Shown here: in pieces, positions 21,201 through 42,288 of the stretch
Layout: the number at the start of each line of letters is the position of its first letter
Position numbering within the stretch: position 1 is the stretch's first letter
DNA from: Clostridia bacterium
Lineage (GTDB): Bacteria; Bacillota; Clostridia; UMGS1883
Assembly: GCA_045545055.1 (NCBI GenBank)
Contig: JAZQAB010000105.1
Location: 1-60,586 of the forward strand
Length of the DNA: 60,586 nucleotides
Direction of reading: 5' to 3'
Made by a program: the position numbers and the translations under genes
Notes under the pieces: model-generated
Seen by the model: only the letters and a program-made list of their open reading frames with translations
Databases searched by the model: none
What the model was told of the DNA's origin: nothing

Positions 21201-22105
21201 GAAATATTATTAAAGACATAGGAATAAAAAATGAAAATTACGCTATCGAAATTGATGTAAAGGATGAAAGTGATATCGATGTGGATACTTTCAGACTTTA
21301 CAGCGATGATAATATAAAATCTGTAACCATTAATGGTCGCAGTGTATACTTTGAACAGAGAGACGGTTATGTTTATCTGAGGGAAACAGGAATTCCGGAG
21401 GATGTAACTGATGATACCATTTCTGCCCCGATAGTACCTGAACATTCTACTGGAAAAAAGCCTTCAGGATGTGGAGGAAGCTCTTCTGGGGTTGGCTCTA
21501 CCAGTGGAGAAAGTGATAACCCCGAAAACGATAAAACGGGTATAGACACTCCCGTAGCTACGGACAAGGATAAAGAGTCTTTCTCTGATATTTCTGCACA
21601 CTGGGCAGAAAAGTATATTCTTGAAGCAAGTGAAAAGAAACTTGTAAATGGTGACGGAAAAGGAAACTTTAAGCCTGACGACTCCGTAACACGGGCTGAG
21701 CTTATTACAATGCTTATGCGTGCAGTAGAGGGAAATGATGTTAATTATAACGGAAACTTCTCCGATGTGGTTTCAGACGATTGGTTTGCACTCGCAGTTG
21801 CGAAAGCATTGTCATTGGGAATTATATCAGAAGATACAAAATTCCGTCCCAATGATTGTGTAACTCGAGAAGAAATGTGCAAGATGATAGTGAATGTATA
21901 CACAATTCTCAGCGGTGAGATAATTGCCAGAAATGACATTACATTTTCTGACGGAGAGGATATATCCTCATGGGCGGAGGATTTTGTTAAAAAAGCCGTG
22001 TCAGCAGGACTCATGAATGGTGTTGACAAGAATTCTTTTGCTCCCAGGAGTGGAGCAACACGAGCTCAGGTAGCAACAGTAATTTGCAGAATGCTGAAAA
22101 ATTAA
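18233..22105 (+). CDS. 1290-aa heparinase II/III-like (polysaccharide-lyase fold) protein with C-terminal 3x SLH anchor
   Basis: Seen: AAAGGAGAG RBS and a signal peptide. Known: heparinase II/III block GVGSHAHNDDLSLGLMAYGKYLLVDP...RAHNTIEIN, and an upstream helical region starting DYAAAKEATLEYYRQR. After a Gly/Ser linker come three SLH repeats (FSDISAHWAEKYILEASEKKLVNGDG...; FSDVVSDDWFALAVAKALSLGIIS; ISSWAEDFVKKAVSAGLMNGVDKNSFAPRSGATRAQVATVICRML). Confidence 0.85.
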   Translation: MMKKVFAFLMSSIIFFSGYSFTTFSANENTSEYFQEKIDFYESFNVGDPQAFTDEEFFGKWDGEKWEVDPAFDYENFPCLVDIEEAAKTSDYAAAKEATLEYYRQRFKEDKYESTVTATSKSYRLLGELAMENTMIRFSNLVPMEKLTLVEDEKWYEADLIERVLHRITTTTSTRFNIRLHETKKDGYMAQFWTKESDKTPYVKIIVNGAERTYYPLADNTVRAGDFLNTSYSNEEYMYANESYTTIGKESPIDNYTRRACMLFDFSDITANDTISSAKLFVYGKMIEDDNPERPEEIKTSMSVFVLDDAQNLNWIEEGHSWLSQSQDDSFSYDGEYGPNLTIPTKLSGQWSAFVMHQQYMVKWLTDLYRGTGDEAYAYHAIRLTINSAHILRDDFTQVTQYFMQLATRNSNLVTNLYTLIKSDYMTPEYFTVILKLIHMQNDYLVEGWSSGDETNNIGSIVTAGLMKGALTIREFKKYSAPKTGLSNPNWPGSMQGGWRDVGIYRSIYKLKTTVFEDGSCVEIPIAYLMTNVTHFFECYEWAEEIGFGEEMAKYVESSERELLRKVAYYVVNMQNPIKGVWQIGDDSKYVSNNSSKMCYIVKFFGINDDPVIEWGYSKGENGAPPENTSYVSDTVQKAVLRSNWTENAVALYMDADGGVGSHAHNDDLSLGLMAYGKYLLVDPLKHTYNGDQKIVSWQVSTRAHNTIEINNATQRGMVTGQGLTEEPFGEELYFPSQTGEIGSLNPETRYLGKLYDYMEGDTNGYKNNNALNGDFKVSRNVLFVKPGYFIVTDYIKPENTDENTYKQAWHLYPGIKYEIEEDSKNIVSKDAQGANLIIAPVDSNGEISLEKRRGYYSTQGSNTPVIVENEYVTYNKQKNGTTTYNTILYPLAAGEIKDIQTADIPLDVDESVANAFSAIITDKNSGGVTNVSYYTLFDDTQKADRKFGYYRTDGTLAFVEKIQDNYSKVILKNATKLSVDGGNAIVENGNIIKDIGIKNENYAIEIDVKDESDIDVDTFRLYSDDNIKSVTINGRSVYFEQRDGYVYLRETGIPEDVTDDTISAPIVPEHSTGKKPSGCGGSSSGVGSTSGESDNPENDKTGIDTPVATDKDKESFSDISAHWAEKYILEASEKKLVNGDGKGNFKPDDSVTRAELITMLMRAVEGNDVNYNGNFSDVVSDDWFALAVAKALSLGIISEDTKFRPNDCVTREEMCKMIVNVYTILSGEIIARNDITFSDGEDISSWAEDFVKKAVSAGLMNGVDKNSFAPRSGATRAQVATVICRMLKN

Positions 22106-22448: not shown

Positions 22449-25157
22449 TTATTGTTCTTTTATTTCAACTCTTTTTACTTTAATAAGATTCCCTGGGTAG
22501 GAGAGAGCAAAACTTACATCAGTACAATCAAAAGGAACATCCTTGTAAACTGTTTTCAGTGAACTTTCAGTTCCGTTCAGTGTTAACGAAGACACAAACC
22601 TGCCGTCGGTTTTTATTGTCAACATTATTTGCGATATAGTAGGCTCTGCAGATGTGTATTCAATACATAAAAGATGGTTTCCGGTTTTGTTTAGAGTGAG
22701 TTTGTATTCTAAATCGTTTTCAAATGACAGAATCTCGACAACTGTTTTAAGAGTGTCCAGCATTTCATAAAGAGAACGCTTCATTTTGCAACCGTTTTCA
22801 ATAAACCTGTCAAGGGCCTTTGAGGTGCATAAATACCGTAAAACATTTATTGCATTTCTCTGTAATTGTCCTCTCGTTATTGTACCGTTTTTTAAGGATT
22901 GTGTAAGATTGTCATTAAATGTAAGAGAATCGGGAGCAGGCATAAAAATGTCATTCTGAGCTTCAACCATATTTTTCAGATTAATATAATCAGTTTCTTC
23001 AATGCTTAATTTTGGCCACCAGTCGGTCATAACAAAACCGTCATATCCCCATTCATTACGTAATATCAGAGTATTAAGCTCATAATTGTTTGCAGTCCAG
23101 ATTCCGTTGAGAGGATTGTATGAGGTCATAAGGGAAGAGGGCTTTCCGTATTTTATTGCATACTCAAAACTTTTTAAATAGATTTCTCTTGCTGCACGTT
23201 CGCTCATTACAGAGTCAACTTCACGTCTGTTAAATTCCTGGGAATTAGCCGCAAAATGCTTTACGGTTGCAGAATTTCTATGCTTTGATATTCCTCTTAT
23301 AAGTGCTGCACCAATAATTCCGGAAAGATACGGGTCCTCTGAAAGATATTCGAAGTTTCTGCCATTTAACGGGGTTCTGTGAATATTAATGCCAGGACCA
23401 AGAATACAGTCAACAGAGTATGCAGACATTTCTATACTTAAAAGCTCGTAAAGCCTTTCGGCAAGAGAGGTATCCCATGTACAGGCGATAGCAGTTCCGT
23501 TTGGAATACTTGTTGCGTATTCTCCACTGTCCATACGTATACCTGACGGCCCATCATGAAGTGCTGCCACAGGAATCCCAAAGCTACAGAGACTCTCGGT
23601 AACACCGCCCAAAACCCCGGCATTTCCGGGTCTCGCTTTATGAGAACACATTCCTTCCCCTTTAAGAAGACAAATAAGGTCAGTATCCGATAACTGAGAA
23701 ACGAATTCTTCCATCATATGCTTGCCTTGCTTCACATCAAAAAGTTTTATTCCCAGATTGCCAGTATAGGGAAGCTCAGAAGGAAGCTCTTCAAGAAGCC
23801 TTTTTTCGTAATCAACAGTTCTGATAGATACAGGCTTATAGCAAAGTTGGGGATTTCCGTTTATTTCTGCCGCATGAAATATATCAAAGCTTCGCATTGG
23901 GGCGACTGCTTCAGTGCATTCTTTTACAACTATTGTTTGGTCAACTGTATATGTAAAAGCTATATCACTACAACGCACCGAGTTGCCAATGTAAATGTTA
24001 TAATTCCCCTTTTCAAGTACATAGCAGGACTTGTTTCCCGTAATACCGCTGTCATCATAGGCGCACATATCTGAAATATTAATTATCATATGAATAATCT
24101 GTTTTTCGCCCGGGAAAAGTAGTCTTGTTTTTGAAAATGCACACAATTCTCGCTTGCTTTTTCCAAGCAGTCCAAAGGGAGCACTAAAATAAGCTTGTAC
24201 TGTTTCCCTACCTTTGGTGCTACCTGTATTTTCGATTTCTATATCAAGAGAAATGGTGCTGTCGCATAAAACAGTGTTTATAGTCCTAAAACTGAATTGA
24301 GTATAGGAGAGTCCAAAACCAAACGGGTATAATACATCATCGGGAGCGAACGTTTCAAAATAACGATAGCCGACAAAAATATCTTCAACGTACAGATTGA
24401 AATCACTATTTCCAAAATTTTTGACTGATGGGTATAGATAAATATCCTTTGCAATTGTATCTGTAAGTTTGCCTGAAGGAGTAACTTTGCCACTTAGAAC
24501 ATCTGCTACAGCGTTTCCGCCTTCCTGCCCACCTTGCCAGATATACATTACTGATTTTATATTGTATTTTTCAACCCACTTCATATCAATAATGTTACCC
24601 ACATTGAGAAGCACAACTGTTCTGTCAAAATATTTTGTAACTGCATCGAGAAGCTTTTCCTCATCCTCGGAAAGATACCAGCTTCCTTTTTCTGCGCTGT
24701 TATCCCTGTCCTCACCGGAGATCCTTCCAATTACAATTACTGCGGTGTCTGATTTTTTTCTGGCGGAAGAGAGGAGCCTATCGTCAGGTATCATTTCCCT
24801 TTGAAACCAAGGCTCCTGTGCCCAACCGTTACCAAGGTCAAAAGGATTTTCCAAAATCCATTGTTCATAGGCGTGTGCCACTTCTTCATTGATTGATAGC
24901 TCAGAGTTATTTCTTATTCCTTCGAGAATATTTACTGTGTACTTAACTCTCACAAGGCCGCCTGAGCCGGTTCCGCTTTTGTTGTAATTAATTTGTGAAC
25001 GTCCAAAAAGCGAGATTACATTTTCTTTTCCCAGAGGCAATACATTACATTCATTTTTAAGCATTACACAGCTTTCTGCACTTACCTCTCTTGCAAGAGA
25101 GGCAAGCGGGGGGGAAGGCTCTTGAGAAAGAGCTTTTAAATCAATATCGTTAGTCAT
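22449..25157 (-). CDS. GH3 beta-glucosidase-type glycoside hydrolase (902 aa), cytoplasmic
   Basis: Seen: the ATG at 25157 (MTNDIDLKAL) is well spaced from GAGGAA. The longer track start at 25256 would overlap the upstream gene. Known: GH3 blocks KHFAANSQE, GFVMTDWW (nucleophile Asp context) and GFGLSYTQF. Confidence 0.9.
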   Translation of the reverse strand: MTNDIDLKALSQEPSPPLASLAREVSAESCVMLKNECNVLPLGKENVISLFGRSQINYNKSGTGSGGLVRVKYTVNILEGIRNNSELSINEEVAHAYEQWILENPFDLGNGWAQEPWFQREMIPDDRLLSSARKKSDTAVIVIGRISGEDRDNSAEKGSWYLSEDEEKLLDAVTKYFDRTVVLLNVGNIIDMKWVEKYNIKSVMYIWQGGQEGGNAVADVLSGKVTPSGKLTDTIAKDIYLYPSVKNFGNSDFNLYVEDIFVGYRYFETFAPDDVLYPFGFGLSYTQFSFRTINTVLCDSTISLDIEIENTGSTKGRETVQAYFSAPFGLLGKSKRELCAFSKTRLLFPGEKQIIHMIINISDMCAYDDSGITGNKSCYVLEKGNYNIYIGNSVRCSDIAFTYTVDQTIVVKECTEAVAPMRSFDIFHAAEINGNPQLCYKPVSIRTVDYEKRLLEELPSELPYTGNLGIKLFDVKQGKHMMEEFVSQLSDTDLICLLKGEGMCSHKARPGNAGVLGGVTESLCSFGIPVAALHDGPSGIRMDSGEYATSIPNGTAIACTWDTSLAERLYELLSIEMSAYSVDCILGPGINIHRTPLNGRNFEYLSEDPYLSGIIGAALIRGISKHRNSATVKHFAANSQEFNRREVDSVMSERAAREIYLKSFEYAIKYGKPSSLMTSYNPLNGIWTANNYELNTLILRNEWGYDGFVMTDWWPKLSIEETDYINLKNMVEAQNDIFMPAPDSLTFNDNLTQSLKNGTITRGQLQRNAINVLRYLCTSKALDRFIENGCKMKRSLYEMLDTLKTVVEILSFENDLEYKLTLNKTGNHLLCIEYTSAEPTISQIMLTIKTDGRFVSSLTLNGTESSLKTVYKDVPFDCTDVSFALSYPGNLIKVKRVEIKEQ

Positions 25158-25176
25158 AAACATTTCCTCGAAAATT

Positions 25177-27333
25177 TCAATTATTATCAATTTTTCTAAA
25201 TCTCTTAAAAATGGTAGAAAAATCACCATATGGATACTCAGGCATAACTCCTGCATACATCAGTTCATCGCCACCAAATTCCTCTCCGGTTTCGACATCG
25301 ACATATACAGAAGTTTCGTCAAGGCCTTCAAGCATAATGGATTCTTCCTTATAATTAGCAACAGAAAGAATTCTGCAAGTGAAGAGAATAAATTCGCAAC
25401 CGTCTTTTGCCACAATCTGCCAACCGCAATAATTGCTTTCATAGGGGTTCTGAAGCCTGTAAAAATCGCCTGTTCTTACGAGTGTGCGTATATCCTTGTA
25501 AAGCTTTATTTGTGATTTTATTTCATCGATTTCACTCTGTGGCATTTTTGTTATATCAAGTTCATAACCAAACGCACCTGTGTAAGCAACGTCAGCTCTT
25601 GTTTTTAAAGGTGTGAATCGGCCAAGCTGGTGATTAGGAGAAGCCGTGACATGTGCCGAAATTGAACTAAGGGGATAGCATATAGAGGTGGAGTACTGAA
25701 TTTTAAGCCTTGCTACTGAATCAGAATTATCACTCGTCCATATCTGCGGTGAATAAGCGAGCATTCCAGCGTCAAATCTTCCGCCTCCGCCTGAGCAGCC
25801 TTCTATGAGAAGTTCAGGAAATTCGGTCAGCAAAGAATCAAGAATTTTATATAAACCCAACGTGTATTTATGATTATAACCCTTGCAAGGCATGTCGGTC
25901 ATAATTCTGTTGTAGTCCCATTTTATATAACTGATTCCTGAATCTCTTATGATTGTGCTCAATGTTTTTATTATATAATCACATACATCGCTTTTTGTAA
26001 GGTCAAGCATATACTGATTTCTACCAAGTGCAGGATTTCTGTGGGGAGTTCTAATAATCCAGTCAGGGTGACTGCGATAAAGATCTGAGTCCGGACTTAC
26101 CATTTCAGGCTCAAACCAAAGTCCGAAACTAATACCCAAAGCATTCACTTTTTCTGTAAGTCCTTTTATTCCTGATGGAAGCTTTTTTTTGTTTGCTATC
26201 CAGTCTCCAAGAGATGTTTTGTCATCGTTTCTTATTCCAAACCAACCATCATCAAGAACAAAAAGTTCCATTCCGGCATCTTTTCCAAGCTTTGCTATAT
26301 TAAGAAGCTTCTTTTCGTCAAAATCAAAATATGTGCCTTCCCAATTGTTTATAAGTATAGGACGGTCTTTTTGTGCCCAACTACTTTTGCAAAGATTGTC
26401 GCGGTAAATATCATGAAGCTGCCTTGAAATTCCGCCAAACCCGTTTGAACTGTAACATATTACTGTCTGTGGTGTGAAGAATGTTTCTCCGGGTTTTAAA
26501 CTATGAGAAAATCCAAAAGGATTAATTCCTTGCATTATACGCACATTTCCAAACTGGTCACATTCGCAGAAAGAAGAGTGATTGCCGCTGTAAATGAGAG
26601 AAAAACCGTATGCGTCAGAGCTTCTTTCAGTTGTATTTTTGTCACACAGAATTACAAAGGGATTCATTGCGTGGCCACTGCCTCCGCTTGCATTTGATAT
26701 GTCAATTTTCTCTCCCTGTTTTATGGGGACACGAACAAATTCTCTTTCTCTTGACCATGCTCCGGGGAAGTAAATAAGGTCATAGTCATGCTTGGCAAAA
26801 TCTACACTTGCACTGTATGCGGAATCTATGTCAATATCATTTTGAGAATCATTTATAAATTTCGTGCTTCTTAAGATAATGTCATATTCTTCAAAAACTG
26901 TATACGACAAAATAATTCTTAACCCCGTTATTTCATCACAAAGAGTAATTTCGAGAGTTGAGGGGGTAAGATTTCCTCTGAAAACAGAAGGCATCCCCTC
27001 AATATAAGCAGTTTCATTCTCTTTAATACAGTATGATTTATAACAGAGCTTTGAAACAGAATCTCCTAGATTGTTTTTTGCTATATAAGCAGGATTTCTC
27101 AGGTCAGTATAACCGTATGCAGGATATTCCTGCAACGCTGTTCCAAGAAAAAAACCATTTTCATCACAACACATAAGGGTACGGTCATCATTTTTTATTT
27201 TTGCAGAGTAGTCCCTGTTCAATAGTTTTTTTCCAAAATAATAATGGAGCAAATCACCATACTCATTTAACGCCATAATGTAGCTTGTATTTTTACCTGT
27301 AAGATGAAATGTATTTTTGTTTTTTACTATCAT
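25177..27333 (-). CDS. GH36 alpha-galactosidase
   Basis: Seen: 718-aa ORF with a GGGAGGAA RBS. Known: GH36 signature blocks FVLDDGWF, YIKWDYNR and EGCSGGGGRFD. Confidence 0.9.
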   Translation of the reverse strand: MIVKNKNTFHLTGKNTSYIMALNEYGDLLHYYFGKKLLNRDYSAKIKNDDRTLMCCDENGFFLGTALQEYPAYGYTDLRNPAYIAKNNLGDSVSKLCYKSYCIKENETAYIEGMPSVFRGNLTPSTLEITLCDEITGLRIILSYTVFEEYDIILRSTKFINDSQNDIDIDSAYSASVDFAKHDYDLIYFPGAWSREREFVRVPIKQGEKIDISNASGGSGHAMNPFVILCDKNTTERSSDAYGFSLIYSGNHSSFCECDQFGNVRIMQGINPFGFSHSLKPGETFFTPQTVICYSSNGFGGISRQLHDIYRDNLCKSSWAQKDRPILINNWEGTYFDFDEKKLLNIAKLGKDAGMELFVLDDGWFGIRNDDKTSLGDWIANKKKLPSGIKGLTEKVNALGISFGLWFEPEMVSPDSDLYRSHPDWIIRTPHRNPALGRNQYMLDLTKSDVCDYIIKTLSTIIRDSGISYIKWDYNRIMTDMPCKGYNHKYTLGLYKILDSLLTEFPELLIEGCSGGGGRFDAGMLAYSPQIWTSDNSDSVARLKIQYSTSICYPLSSISAHVTASPNHQLGRFTPLKTRADVAYTGAFGYELDITKMPQSEIDEIKSQIKLYKDIRTLVRTGDFYRLQNPYESNYCGWQIVAKDGCEFILFTCRILSVANYKEESIMLEGLDETSVYVDVETGEEFGGDELMYAGVMPEYPYGDFSTIFKRFRKIDNN

Positions 27334-27353: not shown

Positions 27354-27394
27354 TACTATAACGTTATAGTAACAAACTAAAAATATCTTGTCAA
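27354..27394 (-). promoter_or_regulatory. Promoter of the GH36-GH3 operon overlapped by an 18-bp LacI-type palindromic operator
   Basis: Seen, reading the minus strand: TTGACA (27394-27389), a 17-nt spacer, then TACTAT (27371-27366). The perfect palindrome TACTATAACGTTATAGTA occupies 27354-27371, so its first 6 nt are the -10 box. It is identical to the site at 28467-28484. Confidence 0.6.
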
Positions 27395-27417: not shown

Positions 27418-28383
27418 TTAACAGTTAAATTCAAAAATCTCAACATCTATGAGTTCGTGAATTTTATTCTTACTGCCTTCTATTTTACTTAAAAGAGAGT
27501 TAGTTGCTTTTTCAGCCCAACCGCCGTTTATCATACCAACACTTATGTTCTGAAAAGGTATATGTAGGTGAGAACATGTCGCATCAAAGCCTATAACGGG
27601 TACATTTTTTACCATAGACATAATTTCAAAAGCAATTAAATCAGAAAAAGCAACAATAGAATCAAACTGTACACTGCTTTCAATAATTTCTCTTATGGCA
27701 TTGCATGCATTGTCTGCTTTAGGACTTATCTGTATGAAGCGTTCTGAGGGAAGAGATATCCCTTTTTCCAAAAATGCTTGCTTAAGACCGTCGAATCTAT
27801 TGCGGCTTGACTCTACATATTCGTACGCTCCGATATATAACGGATTTGTATAAGAGTTGTCTGTAAGATATTTTCCTGCGAGTATACCTGCCTTAAAATC
27901 ATCTGCACAAACATAGTCAGTATCAAGCTGGGCAAAATATCTACCAATTAATATATATGGAATGTCCAACTTGTTTAACAACTCTATATTGTCTGTACTG
28001 TGCTGTGTAGGACATATTAAAATTCCGTCAACCTGCTTACTGCAGGCAGTAACTATAGCGTCATACTCTGCTTCTTCGTCCTCGTTTGTGTTTAGAATAA
28101 TTACTGAGTATTTAAATAACCGCATTTTATCTTCAATGAGCTTTATCTGATGGGCTATGTGTGGATTTGAAATATCGGGAATGATAATTGCAATAGTAAA
28201 GGTTTTGCCTGAACGAAGTGAGACTGCTGCGTTATTGGAAATATAACCTAATCTTTTAGCAGTTTCAAGCACCTTTTGTTTTGTTTCCTCAGATATATCA
28301 TCAATTCCATTCATAACATGGGACACAGTACCTATTGTTATATTAAGTTCTTGGGCAATATCTTTTAGTGTTATTTTTTTCAT
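27418..28383 (-). CDS. LacI-family transcriptional repressor
   Basis: Seen: the ATG at 28383 (MKKITLKDIA) lies 6 nt after AGGAG. The ATG at 28389 directly abuts the RBS. Known: the N-terminal HTH ITLKDIAQELNITIGTVSHVMNG plus a periplasmic-binding-protein fold is typical of LacI/GalR. Confidence 0.9.
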   Translation of the reverse strand: MKKITLKDIAQELNITIGTVSHVMNGIDDISEETKQKVLETAKRLGYISNNAAVSLRSGKTFTIAIIIPDISNPHIAHQIKLIEDKMRLFKYSVIILNTNEDEEAEYDAIVTACSKQVDGILICPTQHSTDNIELLNKLDIPYILIGRYFAQLDTDYVCADDFKAGILAGKYLTDNSYTNPLYIGAYEYVESSRNRFDGLKQAFLEKGISLPSERFIQISPKADNACNAIREIIESSVQFDSIVAFSDLIAFEIMSMVKNVPVIGFDATCSHLHIPFQNISVGMINGGWAEKATNSLLSKIEGSKNKIHELIDVEIFEFNC

Positions 28384-28406
28384 AAGCATCTCCTGTTCAT
28401 AACATA

Positions 28407-28442: not shown

Positions 28443-28484
28443 TTGACAAGGAATTATATTGTATGTTACTATAACGTTATAGTA
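28443..28484 (+). promoter_or_regulatory. Promoter of the + operon (28507 onward) overlapped by the second copy of the 18-bp operator
   Basis: Seen: TTGACA (28443-28448), an 18-nt spacer, then TACTAT (28467-28472). The palindrome TACTATAACGTTATAGTA occupies 28467-28484. The architecture matches 27354-27394. Confidence 0.6.
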
Positions 28485-28506: not shown

Positions 28507-29913
28507 ATGTCAATTTCAACTAAAAAAGTAACATTCGCATTGTTTTTCGGTAATCGTGGATTTTTCCCCGGCGAGGTAATTACCGATGCAAGACGCGAAA
28601 TGATTGAGGCAGTTACAAAAAACGGATTTGACTACATTTGTATGGACGAAAGCCTTACTCGTTACGGTGCTGTTGAAACACGTAAAGAGGGTCAGATGTA
28701 TGCAAAATTCCTTGAAGAAAACAAAGGTAAGTTTGACGGTGTGATTTTATGTATGCCCAATTTCTCTGATGAAAACGGTGCGGCAGAAGCTCTTAAAAAT
28801 GCAGATGTTCCCGTGCTTGTGCAGGCATATCCCGACGAACTTGGTAAGATGGATTTTGCAAGAAGACGTGATACAGTATGCGGTAAGTTTGCAATGTGCC
28901 ATGTGCTTCGTCAGTGTAAGATTAAGTTTACATTAACTAAGAAAATGGCAGTATCACCTCTTGATGAATCCTTTGCAGACGATTTGAGACGCTTTGGTGC
29001 AATCTGCCGTGTGGTAAAGGGAATGAGAAGCTTTAATATAGGTGCTATGGGTGCAAGAACAACTGCATTCAAAACTGTAAGAGCAGATGAGGTTGCACTT
29101 CAGGGAAAGGGAATAAATGTTGAAACAATTGACCTTTCATACATATTTGACCTTATGGAAAAGGTTGACGAAAAGGAACTTGCCGCAAAGAAGGAATACT
29201 TCAAGGGCGTTGCATCATTCGGAAATTACCCCGAGGAAAAGCTGACAAATATTTCAAAGCTTGGCGTAGTATTTGATAAGCTGATTGATGAATACAGCTT
29301 AAATGCAGTAGCCGTAAGATGCTGGGATGAATTTGTAACACAGTATCATATTGCACCCTGTCTTGTACTCAGCGACCTTAATGAGAGAGGTATTCCCGCA
29401 GCGTGTGAGCTTGATGTTAACAACGCTGTTATGATGTATGCGCTTTACCTTGCATCAGAACAGCCTGTAATGCTCCTTGACGTAAATAATAACTATGGTG
29501 AATCTGATAACAAGAATATAATGTTCCACTGCTCAGCAGTGCCCTCATCATTCTTTGAGGAAAAGCCCTGCATTTCCGAGCACCTTATGTTCAAAAAGAG
29601 CTACGGAGAGGGAAAAGGTGTAGGTATCGTTAACGGAAAGGTTAAGTCAGGCAAGGTAACGGTAGCAACTACAAAGACAGAGGACGGAAAAATCTGGGGC
29701 TTCACAACAGACGGCAAGCTCACAAATGATGAGTTTGACAAGGAATTCTTCGGTACAGGCGTTGTATTTGAAAACAATAATCTTGAAAACATATTCAAAT
29801 ATATGTGCGAAAACGGCTATAAGCACCACGTAGCAATCGCAAAGGGTGAATGGTCAGACTGTGTAGAAGAAGCACTTGTAAAATACTTAGGATACAATAT
29901 TGATGTTTTATGA
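28507..29913 (+). CDS. L-fucose/L-arabinose isomerase-family protein (short, about 470-aa class)
   Basis: Seen: GGAGGG RBS and a 468-aa ORF. Known (recall): the N-terminus KVTFALFFGNRGFFPGEVI and the overall length resemble the short fucose-isomerase-like family. Substrate unknown. Confidence 0.7.
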   Translation: MSISTKKVTFALFFGNRGFFPGEVITDARREMIEAVTKNGFDYICMDESLTRYGAVETRKEGQMYAKFLEENKGKFDGVILCMPNFSDENGAAEALKNADVPVLVQAYPDELGKMDFARRRDTVCGKFAMCHVLRQCKIKFTLTKKMAVSPLDESFADDLRRFGAICRVVKGMRSFNIGAMGARTTAFKTVRADEVALQGKGINVETIDLSYIFDLMEKVDEKELAAKKEYFKGVASFGNYPEEKLTNISKLGVVFDKLIDEYSLNAVAVRCWDEFVTQYHIAPCLVLSDLNERGIPAACELDVNNAVMMYALYLASEQPVMLLDVNNNYGESDNKNIMFHCSAVPSSFFEEKPCISEHLMFKKSYGEGKGVGIVNGKVKSGKVTVATTKTEDGKIWGFTTDGKLTNDEFDKEFFGTGVVFENNNLENIFKYMCENGYKHHVAIAKGEWSDCVEEALVKYLGYNIDVL

Positions 29914-30049
29914 TGACAGAAATGTTATTTGCGAAGGTGTTAACGATGCTTCTAACTGCATCTGTATGCTTTGCAATTCTTAGGTCATTTAAAACTGGCA
30001 ACAATGTAAAGGTAGACTAGGATTTTGAACAAAATGGAGAAATCAAAAA

Positions 30050-30850
30050 ATGATTTATGAAAATATTAACCTGGGTGAAGGTGCTTTCCTTGAAATTTAT
30101 GCACCGGAAAAGCCTCGGGGATATGTCCGTGATGCTTTGCTTATAATACCGGGAGGTGCCTATGCGGAAGTATGCGATGACAGAGAGGGCGAACCAATCG
30201 CAATGGAGTTTTTACAAAAGGGATATTCTTCCTTTGTGTTGCATTATTCGGTTGGTGAAAAAGCCAAGTTTCCGACTCCCTTGATTGAAGCATCCAAAGC
30301 AATGAAGTATATAAAGGATAATTTCAAAAAATATAACATAAATCCGGACAGAGTATTTGTAATAGGATTTTCCGCGGGAGGACATTTAGCCGCAAGCTTA
30401 GGTATATTATGGCATCTAAAAGAAATTTATGATGAAATTGATATGCCGTATGGATATAATAAGCCGATAGGCATTTTGCCAATCTATCCGGTTGTTTCGG
30501 CTAATGTACCGGCTCATATGGAGTCTTTTTACAATATTCTTGGAAGCAGCGAAGTAACCAGAGAAGACCTTAACAGATTTTCGCTGGAATTATATGTGGA
30601 TGAAAAATCCTCACCTGCTTTCATTTGCCACACTTCGACAGATAAGATTGTTCCCGTGCACAATGCTTTATGTCTGGCAGAGGCCTATGCTAATAGTGAT
30701 ATACCATTTGAACTTCATATATTTAAAAAGGCTCCCCATGGATTAGCTTTGGGAAATAAAATAACAATGTGCGGTAATCCGGAGTGGTTAAACCAATCGG
30801 GAGAAAAATGGACAGAATTGGCAAAAATATGGATGGAAAGTATTAAATAA
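30050..30850 (+). CDS. Alpha/beta-hydrolase esterase (carbohydrate/acetyl esterase-like)
   Basis: Seen: 266-aa ORF with no signal peptide. Known: the nucleophile elbow GFSAGGHLA (GxSxG) and a late HG motif (APHGLALG) are typical of alpha/beta-fold esterases. Confidence 0.75.
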   Translation: MIYENINLGEGAFLEIYAPEKPRGYVRDALLIIPGGAYAEVCDDREGEPIAMEFLQKGYSSFVLHYSVGEKAKFPTPLIEASKAMKYIKDNFKKYNINPDRVFVIGFSAGGHLAASLGILWHLKEIYDEIDMPYGYNKPIGILPIYPVVSANVPAHMESFYNILGSSEVTREDLNRFSLELYVDEKSSPAFICHTSTDKIVPVHNALCLAEAYANSDIPFELHIFKKAPHGLALGNKITMCGNPEWLNQSGEKWTELAKIWMESIK

Positions 30851-30878
30851 AAATATAAAAACAAGGAGGAAATTTAAA

Positions 30879-31760
30879 ATGAACAAGCTTGGAATTTTTA
30901 TGAACTTTTGGGAGAAGAACTGGGATGCAGACCATGCAAAATATATCAGAAAGGCGAAGGACATCGGCTTTGATGTGCTTGAGTTTCAGGCGCAGCCCCT
31001 TCTTGAAATGAGTGATGATAAAATCCGCTCATTAAAGGCTCTTGCAGACGAGGTAGGAATTGAACTTACATACAGCCTCGGTCTTGACAGAGCCTATGAT
31101 GTATCTTCTCTTGACGAAAATATCAGAAAAGGTGGAGTAGAGTATCTTTCAAACATCGTAAGAAAAATGCACGTAGGAGGCGGCACACTTCTTAGCGGTG
31201 TAAGTTATGCAGGCTGGGGCACACCTGACAATTTCCTCGGTGACAAGCGTCCTTATTGGGAGCAGAGTATAAAGAGCATGAAGGAAATTATCAAGGTAGC
31301 AGAGGAGTGCGGTATAACTTACTGTGTAGAGGCAGTAAACCGTTTTGAAACATGCCTTATTAATACAGCAGAGGAAGCACTTCGCTATGTAGCAGAAATA
31401 GACAGTCCCAATATTGGCGTGCTTCTTGATACCTACCATATGAACATTGAGGAAAACAATATCGGTGATGCAATCCGCCTTGTAGGCGACAAGCTCACAA
31501 GCTTCCACACAGGTGAAAACAATCGTACAGCACCGGGCAGAGGACATCTTGACTGGGATGAAATCTTCGGTGCACTTGCTGATATTAATTATAAGGGAAG
31601 AATTGTATCCGAACCGTTTGTAATGGAAGGCGGCGAGGTAGGACGTGACATTCACGTATATCGCAATCTCGTAGAAAATCCCACAGAGGCAAGAATTGAC
31701 GAGGAAGCAGCATATCTTCTCAACTTCGAAAAAGAGATGCTCAGAAAGTATAATATGTAA
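30879..31760 (+). CDS. Xylose-isomerase-like TIM-barrel protein resembling ketose 3-epimerases (D-psicose/D-tagatose 3-epimerase family)
   Basis: Seen: AAGGAGG RBS and a 293-aa ORF. Known (recall): the blocks FMNFWEKNWDADHAKYIRKAKDIGFDVLEF, VEAVNRFE, LDTYHMNIEE and FHTGENNR parallel the metal-ligand blocks of characterised ketose 3-epimerases. Confidence 0.7.
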   Translation: MNKLGIFMNFWEKNWDADHAKYIRKAKDIGFDVLEFQAQPLLEMSDDKIRSLKALADEVGIELTYSLGLDRAYDVSSLDENIRKGGVEYLSNIVRKMHVGGGTLLSGVSYAGWGTPDNFLGDKRPYWEQSIKSMKEIIKVAEECGITYCVEAVNRFETCLINTAEEALRYVAEIDSPNIGVLLDTYHMNIEENNIGDAIRLVGDKLTSFHTGENNRTAPGRGHLDWDEIFGALADINYKGRIVSEPFVMEGGEVGRDIHVYRNLVENPTEARIDEEAAYLLNFEKEMLRKYNM

Positions 31761-31815
31761 AAAAAGCTTGATTAATAAATCTTTTTGCATTAAAAATAGT
31801 AGCGGAGGGATGAAA

Positions 31816-33954
31816 ATGAAAGACAGTCTTATTTATGTAAGCTACGGCGATAACTCTGTGATTTACGATACACAGTCGGGTGTATTTTCAATCCAGCTTG
31901 AAGGTTGCGGAGAAATTATAAAAAACGCATCGTTGATACTTGAAAATGCTGACGGAGAAAAGCTTAGAATTTGTGAAAACAGAGCTTGCAACACAGAGCG
32001 TCAGTTGAATATCGAAAACAACACCATAAAAATAGTTTATCAAGATGAAAACGCCATCTGTAATCCTACATTGGAGTTTTGTGTTGAAAATAAGTGCGTT
32101 AAATTTGTTGTTACCGGCGCAAAAGAAAATTTTATGTATATTGAGGGTGAAGCATTCTTCGGCGAAAATATGCAGGAAGATACTTTTGCCATGGCTATCG
32201 GCAGAAACGGTCTTGACATACGTTGTGCAATGGGCCCTGCTTCGTCAACAGTTGACAATGCTCTTTATAACAGAAAAACTGACTGTGCATTTTTAATCAA
32301 CGGAGGAAAAAAGGTGCAGTATAAATACGATTGGGAGAAACACTGTTACAATATCCGCCTCGAGGCCGGACCGGTAGCTTTTCAGCAGAAATTCACAATT
32401 TCTTTGAGAGAAAATGTGCTCTCCGGTATGTACGGAATTTCTTTTTCACCCATCAACAAAAATTCAACATTTAAAAAGCCTCCGGCAGGCTGGATGACAT
32501 GGTATGCGGTGAAATTTGACGCCTGCGAAGAATCAGTTCTTGAAAATGTGAAATTCCAGGAAGAAAACCTGAAAAAATACGGTGCCGATGCAATCTGGAT
32601 TGATTGGGAGTGGTACCACAATAACTTGAACGGGGTAAGAAACGACGGGGTAAACACCTTTGTCCCCGACCCGCAGAAATATCCCCACGGAATGAAATTC
32701 GTTTCCGACGAAATTAAAAAAGCAGGGTTCGTACCTGCTTTGTGGCTTGGGTTTACAAATGATTCTTCAAGGAATGAGTTTACCGAAAAGCATCCCGAAA
32801 TCATTCTTGGCGAAAAAGAGGAATGGTGCGGATGTGAATTTTACGATATCAGCCATCCTCTGTACCTCGAAGAATTTCTGCCAAAAGCTCTTCAACAGGT
32901 CTTTGACTGGGGATACGAAGCCGTTAAGTTTGATACACTTCCTATCTGCATAGATTATCACGAAAAGCATCATATGAAGATGTACGATCCCACCCTTTCG
33001 ACAAGAGAAGCTTTCCGTAGTGCGATGAAGAAAGCCCGTGACTATTTAGGCAAGGATATGTATATGCTTTCCTGTGCTTCTGTGAAGGATCCTGACTTTT
33101 TGTGGGCGGCAGACATATTTGATGCAGGACGTGTCGGAAACGATATATTTGAATGGGAAGAATTCATAAGAGAGGGTGTGGACCGTACTCTGAGATTCTA
33201 TCCTCTTCATAACATTGTAATTTATCCGGATGCTGACAATGTTGTCCTCAGGGAAGAATTTAATACCCTGAAACAAGCCGAATCAAGGATATTCTTTGTG
33301 TCGCTTTTGGGTCTTCCGATGACCTTCGGCGATGATTTCAAGGTTCTTTCAGATGACAGGGTAGATTTGATTAAGAAGTGCCTCCCCGTAATGGATATTC
33401 ACCCAATGGATATAAACGAATCTGTCAGCACAAGGGGAGAGCTGATAATGAACCTTGCAGTTGAAAATCCTTTTGAAAGCTATAATGTAGTAAATGTTTT
33501 CAATACTAACAAGGAAAAAGCGGTTCGCAGGGTGAAGATTAACGAGGATTTACATCTTGAAGATGGCGGGTATCATATCTTTGATTTCAAAAGAGAAAAA
33601 TACCTTGGTTGTGTTTCTGGCTTTTTTGAGACTGAACTCGATACTTGTGAGAGTAGTGTGTTCTCTGTAAGAAAAAACCTTGACCGTCCTCAGATAATAA
33701 GCACTTCAAGGCATATTTCGCAGGGTGCTGTGGAAATTAAAGCCCTTTGCCAGACCGGTACAAAAATATCCTTCTCCGCAGAGATTGTCGCAAACGACAC
33801 CTATAAAGTGTATGTATATGTCCCAAGTGGCTTTACGCTGTGCGAAAAAGATAAGAAAAATGCAGTGCTGACTGATGAAAATGTATATTGCATTGAGTAT
33901 TTGAAGGGAGAAGACGGAATATACGAATTTGAAATAGATTTTGAAAAAATGTAA
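31816..33954 (+). CDS. Clan GH-D (GH27/GH36-like, alpha-galactosidase-type) glycoside hydrolase, 712 aa
   Basis: Seen: the ATG at 31816 is well spaced from GGAGGG (31804-31809). The track start at 31696 overlaps the previous gene. Known: PPAGWMTWYAV, AIWIDWEWY and YEAVKFDTL (the K-x-D nucleophile context of clan D). Family assignment by eye only. Confidence 0.65.
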   Translation: MKDSLIYVSYGDNSVIYDTQSGVFSIQLEGCGEIIKNASLILENADGEKLRICENRACNTERQLNIENNTIKIVYQDENAICNPTLEFCVENKCVKFVVTGAKENFMYIEGEAFFGENMQEDTFAMAIGRNGLDIRCAMGPASSTVDNALYNRKTDCAFLINGGKKVQYKYDWEKHCYNIRLEAGPVAFQQKFTISLRENVLSGMYGISFSPINKNSTFKKPPAGWMTWYAVKFDACEESVLENVKFQEENLKKYGADAIWIDWEWYHNNLNGVRNDGVNTFVPDPQKYPHGMKFVSDEIKKAGFVPALWLGFTNDSSRNEFTEKHPEIILGEKEEWCGCEFYDISHPLYLEEFLPKALQQVFDWGYEAVKFDTLPICIDYHEKHHMKMYDPTLSTREAFRSAMKKARDYLGKDMYMLSCASVKDPDFLWAADIFDAGRVGNDIFEWEEFIREGVDRTLRFYPLHNIVIYPDADNVVLREEFNTLKQAESRIFFVSLLGLPMTFGDDFKVLSDDRVDLIKKCLPVMDIHPMDINESVSTRGELIMNLAVENPFESYNVVNVFNTNKEKAVRRVKINEDLHLEDGGYHIFDFKREKYLGCVSGFFETELDTCESSVFSVRKNLDRPQIISTSRHISQGAVEIKALCQTGTKISFSAEIVANDTYKVYVYVPSGFTLCEKDKKNAVLTDENVYCIEYLKGEDGIYEFEIDFEKM

Positions 33955-34091: not shown

Positions 34092-34827
34092 AAGGTAGCA
34101 CTTCTTGACCTTAATGAAGAAGCGGAAAAAACTATGCTGAAAGATAGTAAAAGACGGTGGCATTGCAAAGGGTTATGCCTGTAATGTTCTTGATAAAGAA
34201 AGCATAGAAAAAGCACACGATGAAATCGCAAAGGATTTCGGTACGTGCGATATTCTTATTAACGGAGCGGGGGGAAACAATCCCAAAGCAACAACTGATA
34301 ATGAATACTTTACACCTGAGGATATGGGTAATGTAAAGACATTCTTTGACCTTGATAAATCAGGTGTAGAATTTGTATTCAATCTTAATTTCTTAGGCAC
34401 ACTTTTACCTACACAGGTATTTGCAATGGATATGCTTCAGAAAGAGGATGCAAGTATTATCAATATTTCAAGCATGAATGCATACACTCCTCTTACAAAG
34501 ATACCTGCATACTCAGGTGCAAAGGCTGCAATATCAAACTTTACACAGTGGCTTGCAGTACATTTTTCCAAAACAAATATCCGTTGTAACGCGATTGCTC
34601 CCGGATTCTTTGTAACAAAGCAGAATGAAAAACTTCTCTTTAACGAAGATGGTACACCTACTGCAAGAACAGGTAAAATCCTTGCAGCAACTCCCATGGA
34701 CAGATTCGGCAAGGCAGAAGAACTTATCGGTACACTTTTATTTCTTGTACATAAGGATGCTTCAAGCTTTGTAAACGGCGTAGTAATCCCTGTTGATGGT
34801 GGATTTAGTGCATACAGTGGTGTTTAA
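34092..34827 (+). pseudogene. Short-chain dehydrogenase/reductase (SDR), 5-prime truncated and frameshifted
   Basis: Seen: SDR-like sequence starts abruptly at KVALLDLNEEAEKTMLKD (one frame; the TGA at 34089-34091 lies immediately upstream). That frame ends at the TAA at 34182. Homology continues one base out of phase as KIVKDGGIAKGYACNVLDKESIEKAHDEI...DILINGAGGN...NISSM...YSGAKAA...PVDGGFSAYSGV, up to the stop at 34825-34827. The TGxxxGxG dinucleotide-binding N-terminus is absent. The listed 34324..34827 ORF is only the tail. Confidence 0.75.
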
Positions 34828-34834
34828 ACTTGTT

Positions 34835-34893
34835 CTATATTTGTTTAATCTCCAAAGCAATAGTGATATGCTTTGGAGATTAAACAAATATAG
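34835..34893. repeat. Perfect 24-bp inverted repeat (hairpin, 11-nt loop) immediately upstream of galT
   Basis: Seen: CTATATTTGTTTAATCTCCAAAGC (34835-34858) pairs perfectly with GCTTTGGAGATTAAACAAATATAG (34870-34893). There is no T-run after it. The galT RBS-like AGAAAGGA starts right after the 3-prime arm. Confidence 0.9.
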
Positions 34894-34908
34894 AGAAAGG
34901 AATAAACA

Positions 34909-36405
34909 ATGATATACGAAAATATTGACAAATTAATATCATATGCTTCAATTACAAGGCTTATAGAAGAAAGCGATGAAGTTTATGCAAGAAACAGAAT
35001 CCTTGCACTTTTAAAGCTTGATTCTTATGAGAAAACAGGGAAGATATGCAACAGTATTAATGAACTGGAAGAAATTCTTAACTCAATAACAGACTATGCA
35101 GTAGAAAACGGATTGATTGAAAATGACAGTATAGTGTACAGGGATATGTTTGATACAGCACTTATGGATATTCTGACCCCGTATCCCTCAACTATCATAA
35201 ACAGATTCAACAGCCTTTATGATATTTCTCCCGAGGAAGCAACTGACTATTTTTACACACTTTCCTGTGACAGTAACTACATAAGAAGAAATAGAATAAA
35301 TAAAGACGTAAAATGGACAGTAGACTCCGAATACGGCGAAATTGAAATAACTATTAATCGCTCAAAGCCTGAGAAAGACCCCAAAGCCATTGCAGCGGCA
35401 AAGAACAGCAAGGAGTCAACATATCCTCTTTGTCAGTTATGTATTGATAACGAAGGATATGAGGGCAGAGTAAATCACCCTGCAAGGCAGAATCACAGAA
35501 TCATCCCTGTTGAGATTTGCGGAAAAAGATGGGGCTTTCAGTATTCTCCCTATGTTTATTACAATGAGCATTGTATTCTGCTTAATTCAGAGCACGTTCC
35601 TATGGTGATTGACAGAAATGTTTTTTTGAAACTTCTTGATTTTATAAGACAGTTCAATCATTATATGATAGGTTCTAATGCAGACCTGCCAATAGTTGGT
35701 GGCTCAATACTTTCGCATGAGCATTTTCAGGGTGGAAACCACGTGTTTGCTATGCATAAGGCAGATAGTGAACGCTTTTATAAAATAACAGGCTTTGAAG
35801 ATGTTGAAGTAAGCACTCTTAAATGGCCTATGTCAGTTATCAGACTTAAATCTGAAAATACAGATAAGATTGTAGAACTATCGGATAAAATCCTTACAAA
35901 CTGGCGTAATTACAATGATGAGGATGCTTTTATATTTGCTGAAACAAATGGTGAAATGCATAATACAATTACACCCATCGCAAGCATGTCCGACGGAAAG
36001 TATGTAATGGATCTAGTGCTCAGAAACAACATTACAACAGAAGAGCATCCGTTGGGTGTCTATCACCCTCACGCAGAGCTTCACCATATCAAGAAAGAGA
36101 ATATAGGTCTTATTGAGGTAATGGGACTTGCAGTGCTTCCTTCGAGACTTGTGGAAGAGCTTGATGCAGTTGCCGATGCGATTATAAAAGGCTCAGATAT
36201 GAGTAAAAACGAAAAAACTGCCACACATAAGGAGTGGGTAGAAGAAGTAGTTAAAAATCATCCTGAAATCAATGCAGATAATGTTGACAGAATACTTAAA
36301 GAAGAAGTAGGTAAGGTTTTCGTCAATGTGCTTGAGCATGCAGGTATATATAAGCGTGATGCAGAGGGAAGAAAAGCATTTGATAAGTTTATAAAAACCC
36401 TGTAG
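34909..36405 (+). CDS. galT: Galactose-1-phosphate uridylyltransferase (type 2, Gram-positive form)
   Basis: Seen: 498-aa ORF. Known: the length and the blocks CQLCIDNEGYEGRVNHPARQNHRIIP and LSHEHFQGG are typical of the long GalT of Firmicutes. It lies directly upstream of galK. Confidence 0.9.
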   Translation: MIYENIDKLISYASITRLIEESDEVYARNRILALLKLDSYEKTGKICNSINELEEILNSITDYAVENGLIENDSIVYRDMFDTALMDILTPYPSTIINRFNSLYDISPEEATDYFYTLSCDSNYIRRNRINKDVKWTVDSEYGEIEITINRSKPEKDPKAIAAAKNSKESTYPLCQLCIDNEGYEGRVNHPARQNHRIIPVEICGKRWGFQYSPYVYYNEHCILLNSEHVPMVIDRNVFLKLLDFIRQFNHYMIGSNADLPIVGGSILSHEHFQGGNHVFAMHKADSERFYKITGFEDVEVSTLKWPMSVIRLKSENTDKIVELSDKILTNWRNYNDEDAFIFAETNGEMHNTITPIASMSDGKYVMDLVLRNNITTEEHPLGVYHPHAELHHIKKENIGLIEVMGLAVLPSRLVEELDAVADAIIKGSDMSKNEKTATHKEWVEEVVKNHPEINADNVDRILKEEVGKVFVNVLEHAGIYKRDAEGRKAFDKFIKTL

Positions 36406-36416: not shown

Positions 36417-37601
36417 ATGGAACTTAATGAAATGAAAAAAGCATTCACCGAGCTTTACGGAGAAGGAGAGATGAGAGTATTCGCATCTCCCGGACGTGTT
36501 AACCTTATTGGTGAACATATTGATTACTGCGGCGGCTATGTTATGCCTGCTGCACTTACAATGAAAACCACACTAATTGCAAGAAAGAGGAATGATGATA
36601 TAATCCGCCTTAAAACAACTGATCTTGACTTTATGGTTGAAACCAGAGTTTCCGAAATGCATAATCTAAAAGGTAAGCTTAAATGGGGAGATTATCAGAT
36701 AGGTGTAATGCTTGAACTCATGAAGGATGGGTATGATATATGCGGTTGTGACCTGCTTTATGATGATACAGTTCCTCACGGTGGAGGACTTTCATCATCT
36801 GCGGCGATAGAGGTATCTACGGCAATTTGCTTTGCAACCTTTTCAAATGAGAAAAATGGTATAGATAAAAAGCTGGATATGATTGAAATGGCTCTTATTT
36901 CTCAGCGTGCAGAGCATAACTTTATAGGGGTTAAATGCGGCATAATGGATCAGTTTGCATCAGCTATGGGAAAAGCAGACCACGCAGTATATCTTAACTG
37001 TGCTACTCTTGAATATGAGCATATTCCGCTTAAACTAAGCGACAGCAGTATAGTTCTTACAAATACTAATGTTAAGCATTCTCTTGGAAGTTCGAAATAC
37101 AATGAGAGAAGAGCAGAATGTGAAGAAGGACTTAATGCACTCAAAACCGTTCTACCTGATATAACCCAGCTTGCAGATGTGACAATAGAGCAGTTTGAAG
37201 AGTATAAAGATATAATTAAAAATGAAATTACAAGAAAACGCATCAAGCACGTAGTTTATGAGTGTAACAGAGTTCGTAAAAGTGCAGAAGCTATGAAGAA
37301 TAACGACATAGCACTTTTTGGGCAATATATGAATGAATCACACGATTCGCTACAACATGATTACGAAGTAACTTGTCCAGAGCTTGACTACGTTGTAGAG
37401 ACGGGAAGAAAAATAGAAGGTGTGCTTGGAATAAGAATGACAGGTGCAGGTTTTGGTGGTTGCACTGTAGCAATCGTAAAGAACAATGTTGTTGAAGATT
37501 ATATTCAAAAAATTGGTATGCTTTTTGAAGGGAGATTTGGTCATAAAGCATCGTTTTATGTAACCGGCACAGGTGATGGAGGCAGGGAGATTCTCTGCTA
37601 A
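36417..37601 (+). CDS. galK: Galactokinase
   Basis: Seen: AGGAGAG RBS and an 11-nt gap after galT. Known: galactokinase signature ASPGRVNLIGEHIDYCGGYVMPAAL, plus the GHMP kinase motifs PHGGGLSSSAAIEVS and GAGFGGCTVAIV. Confidence 0.95.
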   Translation: MELNEMKKAFTELYGEGEMRVFASPGRVNLIGEHIDYCGGYVMPAALTMKTTLIARKRNDDIIRLKTTDLDFMVETRVSEMHNLKGKLKWGDYQIGVMLELMKDGYDICGCDLLYDDTVPHGGGLSSSAAIEVSTAICFATFSNEKNGIDKKLDMIEMALISQRAEHNFIGVKCGIMDQFASAMGKADHAVYLNCATLEYEHIPLKLSDSSIVLTNTNVKHSLGSSKYNERRAECEEGLNALKTVLPDITQLADVTIEQFEEYKDIIKNEITRKRIKHVVYECNRVRKSAEAMKNNDIALFGQYMNESHDSLQHDYEVTCPELDYVVETGRKIEGVLGIRMTGAGFGGCTVAIVKNNVVEDYIQKIGMLFEGRFGHKASFYVTGTGDGGREILC

Positions 37602-42276: not shown

Positions 42277-42288
42277 GGAGGTGTTGTT

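Follow-up and report, generated by a model that had tools for sequence, protein, structure and literature searches.

What would a gut bacterium do with a group of genes in which a single repressor stands between two glycosidases read in one direction and an aldose-ketose isomerase, an esterase, a ketose 3-epimerase and a third glycosidase read in the other? The question is raised by a unit at 22449-33954 of contig JAZQAB010000105.1 (C105), part of the 2.43-Mb, 93%-complete assembly GCA_045545055.1 (G000) of an uncultured gut Clostridia bacterium. The whole contig of 60,586 nucleotides was analysed and is called the window. An earlier sequence-only reading had placed a GH36 and a GH3 enzyme on the minus strand and the four other enzymes on the plus strand, and Pfam and NCBIfam searches of the open reading frames (ORFs) found all six where it had put them. 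It took the set for one dedicated, cytoplasmic pathway for an acylated, unusual galactoside. The analysis described here points to a conserved two-gene cassette, isomerase plus epimerase, around which the window has assembled a local mosaic under one predicted operator. The enzymes come from known superfamilies. The isomerase and the third glycosidase belong to uncharacterised subfamilies, and the natural role of the cassette appears to be undescribed in the literature searched.

One predicted operator at two promoters

The unit is built around the gene of a LacI-family repressor of 323 aa (27418-28389, minus strand), which consists of a LacI helix-turn-helix and a sugar-binding Peripla_BP_1 domain. 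The gene is bracketed by two copies of a perfect 18-bp palindrome, TACTATAACGTTATAGTA, which has the central CG found in LacI-family operators. These copies, at 27354-27371 and 28467-28484, are the only two in the window, against a chance expectation of 0.01. Both overlap the -10 element of promoters of the form TTGACA-17/18-TACTAT directed away from the repressor gene. The first copy lies on the GH36-GH3 promoter (minus-strand TTGACA at 27394, 17 nt, TACTAT) and the second on the promoter of the plus-strand genes (TTGACA at 28443, 18 nt, TACTAT). A search of the rest of the assembly, made with the transporter in mind, gave no site with up to two mismatches and three sites with three. Because the identical palindrome sits on the -10 of both outward promoters, the repressor and its predicted operator appear to control the GH36-GH3 genes and the plus-strand genes as one regulon. 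This is well supported in silico and agrees with the single LacI regulon proposed earlier.

The presumed minus-strand operon starts with a canonical GH36 alpha-galactosidase of 718 aa (25177-27333), recognised by Melibiase at 497 bits, GH36N at 236 bits and GH36C at 54 bits. It is followed by a GH3 glycosidase (22449-25256, minus strand) whose likely true start is Met32 or Met34 (about 25157-25163), just past the GH36 stop; this start also abolishes an 80-nt overlap between the two genes. The Pfam domains of the GH3 enzyme are circularly permuted, GH3_C at residues 64-318 preceding an Fn3-like domain at 351-426 and GH3_N at 558-807. Its best NCBIfam match is exo-alpha-(1->6)-L-arabinopyranosidase (354 bits), followed by beta-glucosidase and beta-xylosidase, all far under their cut-offs.

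On the plus strand the isomerase (28507-29913, 468 aa), the esterase (30050-30850, 266 aa), the epimerase (30879-31760, 293 aa) and a glycosidase of 712 aa (31816-33954) are separated in that order by 136, 28 and 55 nt, and none of the gaps contains a convincing terminator. The start of the 712-aa protein is the ATG at 31816, which lies within a longer ORF and has a ribosome-binding site in front of it. A crude hydropathy check detected no membrane-spanning protein among the unit's products and, once the GH3 enzyme begins at Met32/34, no signal-peptide-like N-terminus; all of them are predicted to be cytoplasmic, as had been suggested. The reported lack of transport genes also held, with no permease, phosphotransferase-system or binding-protein gene between 22449 and 37601. 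The nearest ATP-binding cassette (ABC) systems are at 4632-8219 and 41326-44810.

The isomerase-epimerase cassette and its partners

The epimerase, a xylose-isomerase-like TIM barrel, scores 390.1 bits against NF051856, the D-psicose (D-allulose) 3-epimerase equivalog, whose cut-off is 300, and the match covers 2-288 of 287 positions. An inosose or hydroxypyruvate isomerase subfamily, which had been named as the assignment that would undo the epimerase proposal, was ruled out. Models for inosose, hydroxypyruvate and sugar-phosphate epimerases gave 20-51 bits. Solved D-tagatose 3-epimerases (DTEases) and D-psicose 3-epimerases (DPEases) match at 250-265 bits, and the segments VEAVNRFE, LLDTYH, FHTGENNR and VSEPF align with E150, D183/H186, H209/R215 and E244 of the Clostridium cellulolyticum DPEase (3VNI). 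The Glu-Asp-His-Glu metal site and the substrate-binding Arg of that enzyme are thus retained. Fold and length are those of the family (3VNI; Pseudomonas cichorii 2OU4/4XSL; Agrobacterium tumefaciens 2HK0). By these residues and scores the protein is a true member of the D-psicose/D-tagatose 3-epimerase family. At position 7 it has Phe, a residue shared with the broad-specificity DTEase of P. cichorii, whereas DPEases have Tyr6.

The isomerase is harder to place. Its sole Pfam domain is Fucose_iso_C (55.7 bits), and the only curated model that it matches, over nearly its full length, is that of the sulfoquinovose isomerase SftI (NF048012), at 113.7 bits against a cut-off of 700. Sequence searches of the PDB returned no FucI or AraA, and the AraA Pfam domains, AraA_N and Arabinose_Iso_C, are missing (AraA_N, PF02610, has no match anywhere in G000, this protein included). 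Its AlphaFold (AF2) model has a predicted local distance difference test (pLDDT) score of 88.8. With this model Foldseek found the closest structures among L-arabinose isomerases (G. kaustophilus, E. coli, T. maritima and L. fermentum), at template modelling (TM) scores of 0.80-0.83, about 490 aligned columns and probability 1.0. FucI gave 0.72/0.58, with just 0.58 of FucI covered. The modelled fold is therefore closer to L-arabinose isomerase than to FucI. The label "fucose-isomerase-like" given earlier stands for the superfamily, to which AraA and FucI both belong, and not for the nearest fold. The window protein superposes on AraA over its whole length, with a sequence identity to either enzyme of just 12-14%. 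FucI has three domains in about 590 aa, Fucose_iso_N1/N2 among them, and the N-terminal FucI domains are absent from the 468-aa window protein. The family is large, with more than 5800 homologues named "fucose isomerase-like" at most.

Two known pathways were considered for the isomerase and ruled out. The canonical L-fucose pathway fails because the FucI N-terminal domains are missing and no FucK or FucA is linked. SftI, from the sulfo-transaldolase pathway, is an example of a short FucI-like enzyme whose substrate is a gluco-configured, 6-modified sugar. Unlike that pathway, the window unit has no transaldolase, no sulfolactaldehyde enzyme and no GH31 sulfoquinovosidase, and membership in a sulfoquinovose pathway was rejected on these absent partners and on the SftI score far under its cut-off.

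The same genome has a second FucI_C-like isomerase, of 449 aa and unrelated in sequence, in a separate cluster on contig C64 (1-7725; L097). Packed closely with it are genes for a SIS-domain sugar-phosphate isomerase, a YjbQ-like protein, an XylB-like FGGY kinase, an FSA/TalC-type fructose-6-phosphate aldolase/transaldolase, a 500-aa protein of unknown type and an MFS transporter. This cluster may be another non-canonical sugar route in a genome that shows no canonical XylA or AraA.

How constant the pairing of isomerase and epimerase is was determined from gene neighbourhoods. An alignment search with isomerase homologues in a collection of contigs holding one genome per species confirmed at least 528 loci, spread widely among uncultured Clostridia of the human and ruminant gut. 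Of these, 80 were retrieved; an isomerase ORF was called in 76, which with a locus from the same genus (L013) makes 77 others, or 78 with the window. Neighbouring genes were ORFs of at least 90 aa grouped by single linkage, a procedure cruder than true gene calls. An epimerase lies within two genes of the isomerase in 51 of the 77, and immediately after it in 49 of the 78. In 17 of the 77 loci its place is taken by a class II ketose-bisphosphate-type aldolase, mostly accompanied by a PfkB kinase; neither enzyme is found in nine, five of which are ended by the contig edge. The upstream regulator is of the PocR-AraC type in 41 loci and of the LacI type in 13, the window being counted in both surveys. 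In a quick tree of the isomerases, 15 of the 17 aldolase-partnered sequences group together in a single clade (SH-aLRT 99), surrounded by the epimerase-partnered sequences. As judged by gene order, the isomerase and the epimerase are a self-contained functional pair of gut Clostridia.

The two halves of the pair have diverged to different degrees. The window epimerase is 94-96% identical to those of five loci (L013, L029, L030, L032, L034), while the adjoining isomerases are 56-68% identical; in the same comparison the GH-D-like protein of L013 shares 44% identity with that of the window. Either exceptionally strong selection on the epimerase or its recent exchange separately from its isomerase partner would account for this.

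A recurrent glycosidase partner is the 712-aa protein, which had been assigned to clan GH-D. No Pfam model matches it at threshold (Melibiase 17.7 bits against 27), and its sequence weakly resembles Thermotoga maritima GalA (TmGalA, GH36) and GH27 enzymes. The AF2 model (pLDDT 90.8) settles the fold: the top 50 Foldseek hits are all GH36 or GH27, with probability 1.0 and E values down to 2e-22, and they include GH36 and GH27 alpha-galactosidases and GH27 beta-L-arabinopyranosidases. K371-x-D373 and R439-x-x-x-D443, invariant in 28 homologues, align with the nucleophile (KIDF) and acid/base (RIGPD) of TmGalA. The protein shares with TmGalA and GH27 enzymes the three-part architecture round a (beta/alpha)8 barrel, at 12-16% identity. 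On model and motifs together it is a divergent clan GH-D glycosidase with an intact catalytic Asp pair, as proposed. The "IDD" of TmGalA, a paired-Asp motif which we take to be galactose-binding, reads "IDW" here, with D263 invariant and W264 nearly so among the 28 homologues; the enzyme might therefore act on a sugar other than plain galactose. Members of this family are labelled hypothetical proteins in their source records, and none is characterised.

In 11 other loci a GH-D-like gene directly adjoins the cassette, on one side of the pair or the other, and is read in the same direction; a canonical GH36 gene directly follows the cassette in a genome of the same genus (L018, G005). Further loci carry GH36-like, GH31 and GH4 genes, phosphatases, and GH88, PL8 or heparinase-II/III-like lyases. 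GH51 occurs near the cassette in nine loci, GalA-type GH2 in six and GH127 in three; a BAD_1528-like beta-L-arabinopyranosidase (GH36-like) immediately precedes the isomerase in L095.

Some of these neighbours recur as blocks. A Metallophos phosphoesterase and a GalA-type GH2 flank the cassette in L024, L031, L033, L036 and L052, mostly together with GH51 and sometimes with a PHP-domain phosphoesterase; a HAD phosphatase is present in some loci. Lyase/GH88 systems with PL8 or heparinase-II/III-like lyases lie right beside the cassette or beside its GH-D partner in L018, L046, L049 and L076.

The GH-D-like family also occurs away from the cassette. In L014 (G010, 2762-6785) and L015 (G019, 2823-6441), both from the same genus, the gene lies beside a GFO/IDH/MocA oxidoreductase and a DUF1893/TM1506 domain; in G010 this domain forms one protein with an ECF-transporter S component, and G019 has it fused with the oxidoreductase. 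In G000 itself a 186-aa ORF at the end of contig C84 (19963-20430) matches residues 489-644 of the GH-D-like protein with 42% identity and is probably a second, cut-off paralogue.

The remaining plus-strand enzyme is a BD-FAE-type alpha/beta esterase (PF20434, 94.5 bits against a threshold of 26.8) with a GFSAGG nucleophile elbow (G-x-S-x-G). The arylesterase lp_1002 (164 bits), the pectin acetylesterase PaeX (133) and AxeA1 (97) are its best matches, all under cut-off.

Proposed pathway and candidate sugars

The explanation to which we lean, with slightly better than even confidence, is that one LacI repressor and its 18-bp palindrome run both the GH36-GH3 operon and an operon made of the cassette, the esterase and the GH-D-like glycosidase. 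The repressor would bind the same palindrome on the -10 elements of the two outward promoters and so control operon 1, canonical GH36 plus permuted GH3, and operon 2, the cassette with its two additions. Oligosaccharides would be imported by a transporter encoded elsewhere, for which the neighbouring lyase/GH88/ABC operon is a candidate. They would be de-esterified in the cytoplasm by the acetyl/aryl-type esterase and then trimmed by the three glycosidases. Galactose would enter the adjacent GalK and GalT, and a second released aldose would be isomerised to a ketose and C3-epimerised to a ketose usable by other enzymes of the cell. The order of these reactions, the import step and the sugar are our proposal; the gene identities, folds, catalytic residues, common operator and conservation of the pair on which it is built are observed. 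LacI control over cytoplasmic GH36, GH3 and esterases that work on imported, decorated oligosaccharides is also a feature of mannan- and raffinose-type loci of gut Firmicutes, such as the mannan locus of Roseburia intestinalis. Those loci, however, bring an ABC transporter of their own together with GH130/GH113 enzymes, and they are not known to contain an isomerase-epimerase pair.

Several observations weigh against this explanation. Across the loci compared, the commonest arrangement is the two-gene cassette with its own PocR-AraC or LacI regulator, standing alone. Orthologues of the LacI protein immediately precede the isomerase in 12 other loci, and the spacer between the LacI and isomerase genes contains a 16-bp core of the operator, with no or one mismatch, in five loci (L070, L079, L081, L083, L089). 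In these five genomes the operator is confined to the cassette, and the repressor-operator pair would therefore normally govern the isomerase-epimerase cassette alone, a second copy having recruited GH36-GH3 in the window. The operator-linked GH36-GH3 operon was found in this window only, and none of the 77 other loci has the esterase beside the cassette. Since the cassette is mostly alone and its operator elsewhere cassette-only, the link to glycosidases may be opportunistic, and the large enzyme mix is best read as a local mosaic rather than a conserved pathway. On the conserved core, an esterase appears to have been inserted, a GH-D-like gene added and GH36-GH3 linked through the operator. 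The comparison of gene neighbourhoods that had been called for thus upheld the pair and, in 11 loci, its GH-D-like partner, and left the esterase and the GH36-GH3 linkage as features of the window.

A paralogous pair of LacI and FucI-like genes with a related palindrome of its own, ACGATAACGTTATCGT, is present in another genome (L121, contig C53 of G090), its isomerase 43% identical to that of the window. The repressor-operator-isomerase unit has therefore been duplicated and has diverged inside one genome.

The same facts are what would be expected if the modules were independent, the cassette scavenging a free monosaccharide such as D-psicose or D-allose with no biochemical connection to the glycosidases and esterase, and a mosaic of genes having come under a common repressor. 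Besides the stand-alone cassette and the cassette-only operator of five genomes, the very mixed neighbours (GH51, GH2, GH88, PL8, GH4, GH31, phosphatases) speak for it. So do a rearrangement scar, a beheaded SDR gene, right after the GH-D-like gene, and the closest relative of the window isomerase (L017, 90% identity), which has a PocR-AraC regulator and no glycosidase. This explanation is nevertheless judged unlikely. A second identical operator over the GH36-GH3 promoter would hardly persist without selection for co-expression. The 11 other loci in which the GH-D-like gene is directly adjacent and co-directional come from several isomerase clades, and in about a quarter of the loci the cassette has an alpha-glycosidase of clan GH-D or GH4 with it. 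Furthermore, no monosaccharide transporter is conserved next to it.

The pathway proposed by the sequence-only reading, in which every gene of the divergon is needed for an acylated unusual galactoside and a rare hexose is processed Izumoring-style, is improbable and over-reads a locus whose core elsewhere stands mostly alone. It draws on the presence of the esterase, two alpha-galactosidase-type enzymes and the cassette in one regulon and on the "IDW" motif, a hint of a non-galactose or modified sugar. It can also point to deacetylase types of other families near GH-D-like genes of the same genus: in G010 the next gene downstream encodes a CE4 polysaccharide deacetylase, and in G020 the third ORF downstream is a GDSL esterase. 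Acylation itself gains little from the esterase, which adjoins the cassette in the window and in no other locus; relatives have its nearest orthologues at other genomic sites. Esterase and isomerase do co-occur in five of five genomes, never adjacent, and this was given little weight as the genomes are kin. Neither the GH3 nor the operator-linked GH36 is a conserved partner, and among the compounds common in herbivore and human guts no natural alpha-glycoside that combines a rare hexose with acylation is known to us.

Least probable of all is that the cassette stands in for KduI and handles DHU, the unsaturated uronate produced by systems of lyase and GH88, of which one lies immediately upstream of the unit. 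In its favour, KduI was not found in G000, although the unit has GH88-like and PL12-like genes on its flanks; the four loci named above have a lyase or GH88 gene beside the cassette, and the SDR remnant that follows the unit resembles KduD or mannonate oxidoreductase. Against it, the known route needs no epimerase, neither lyase nor GH88 is present in most cassette loci, the epimerase matches neutral ketose 3-epimerases at equivalog level, and G000 has an RpiB/LacAB-family gene (a family-level assignment only).

Which sugar the cassette would handle within the favoured regulon can be narrowed in part. An L-arabinose-type sugar (L-arabinose to L-ribulose to L-xylulose) is a tentative choice and ranks before a D-psicose-type sugar (D-allose, D-altrose or free D-psicose to D-fructose), which is possible; a D-arabinose-type sugar (to D-xylulose) is doubtful. 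A sugar of another kind, for example a 6-modified one, ranks before each of these and still falls well short of even confidence. The rare hexose suggested earlier is stereochemically possible, as one among several readings. The partner glycosidases of other loci (GH51, GH127, the beta-L-arabinopyranosidase-like GH36 and GalA-type GH2) point at least equally to L-arabinose/galactose glycans. Conversion of D-galactose through D-tagatose to D-sorbose was ruled out as unproductive, galT and galK being present.

For the L-arabinose type speak the AraA-like fold of the isomerase and the accompanying glycosidases, which release L-arabinose and galactose. Canonical AraA was not found in G000, nor in 46 of 49 cassette-bearing genomes, and canonical XylA was not found in G000. 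The absence of AraA does not discriminate, since relatives without the cassette are equally without it (one of 41 has AraA). No L-xylulose kinase or aldolase was found linked to the unit, and the single class II (PF00596) aldolase of G000 is neither RhaD- nor AraD-like. The last two points tell against an L-arabinose route through L-xylulose.

For the D-psicose type speak the equivalog-level DPEase match and a product, fructose, that needs only the housekeeping PfkB/ROK kinases present in G000. If the product must suit housekeeping kinases, D-psicose to D-fructose or D-ribulose to D-xylulose are the obvious routes. The aldolase-bearing variant of the cassette pulls the other way. Class II aldolases of the FBA/TBA type are known only for 3S ketose phosphates. 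If the isomerase product is common to both variants, it would therefore be of the L-ribulose, D-tagatose, D-xylulose or D-fructose type. This fits L-ribulose or D-tagatose and not D-psicose or D-ribulose, and on the same assumption it conflicts with the D-psicose reading.

A close parallel to the cassette is man-made. In the engineered pentose-1-phosphate route of Pereira et al. (2016), as reviewed in PMC7341569, an isomerase is followed by D-tagatose 3-epimerase, a ketose 1-kinase and an aldolase. The P. cichorii enzyme there converts L-ribulose to L-xylulose in a pentose route that the review calls non-natural. The first two enzyme types and their order are the same as in the natural cassette, and a kinase and an aldolase recur in its alternative variant; unlike the engineered route, the epimerase-bearing cassette has no linked 1-kinase or FucA/RhaD-type aldolase.

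It is rather unlikely, yet worth stating, that the cassette is the first natural catabolic pathway based on a free-sugar ketose 3-epimerase, either as an araA-less L-arabinose route through L-xylulose or for a sugar released by a new, non-galactose GH36-like family. DPEases and DTEases are known as biocatalysts, and ketose 3-epimerases of gut Clostridia are workhorses for allulose production; here, by contrast, the gene is half of a conserved operon with an isomerase. Literature searches found no paper that assigns this enzyme family a physiological pathway or a genomic partner, and nothing that ties a DPEase to a fucose-isomerase-like gene or describes a natural L-ribulose 3-epimerase route. 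If such a pathway were confirmed, an industrially used family would acquire a physiological role.

Other consequences depend on the sugar. In a recent survey of gut bacteria and allulose, the phosphorylated AlsE route was the only one considered, and few gut species were judged able to use the sugar (PMC12216980); that conclusion would need revision if the cassette acts on free psicose. Should its substrates be arabinose-type sugars, the cassette would account for the handling of a major plant sugar by bacteria without araA. Two sizeable enzyme families, the short AraA/FucI-like isomerases and the GH36-like glycosidases, are brought to attention in either case. The particular value of the window is that a defined repressor-operator pair ties the cassette to alpha-galactosidase-type enzymes and so offers a handle on the substrate.

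Borders and neighbours of the unit

The unit probably ends at 33954, after the GH-D-like gene, because a gap of 369 nt to the next ORF, a truncated SDR gene and an inverted repeat come before galT. The SDR remnant (34093-34830, plus strand) is of the mannonate-oxidoreductase/KduD-like type and matches positions 116-280 only of PRK08277. Stop codons lie ahead of its frame, the Rossmann Gly motif is absent and the C-terminal two thirds are retained; it is probably non-functional. The inverted repeat (34829-34899) has 31-nt arms that are 94% complementary and a 9-nt loop, lacks a U-tract and lies just before galT.

The two genes that follow, galT (34909-36405, plus strand; NF003629, 771 bits) and galK (36417-37601, plus strand; NF003705, 456 bits), score above their cut-offs. 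They are probably neighbours rather than members of the unit, and as Leloir enzymes they would be available for released galactose. On the other side, upstream of the unit, 17081-22105 of the window is occupied by a lyase/GH88 system with a PL12-like lyase.

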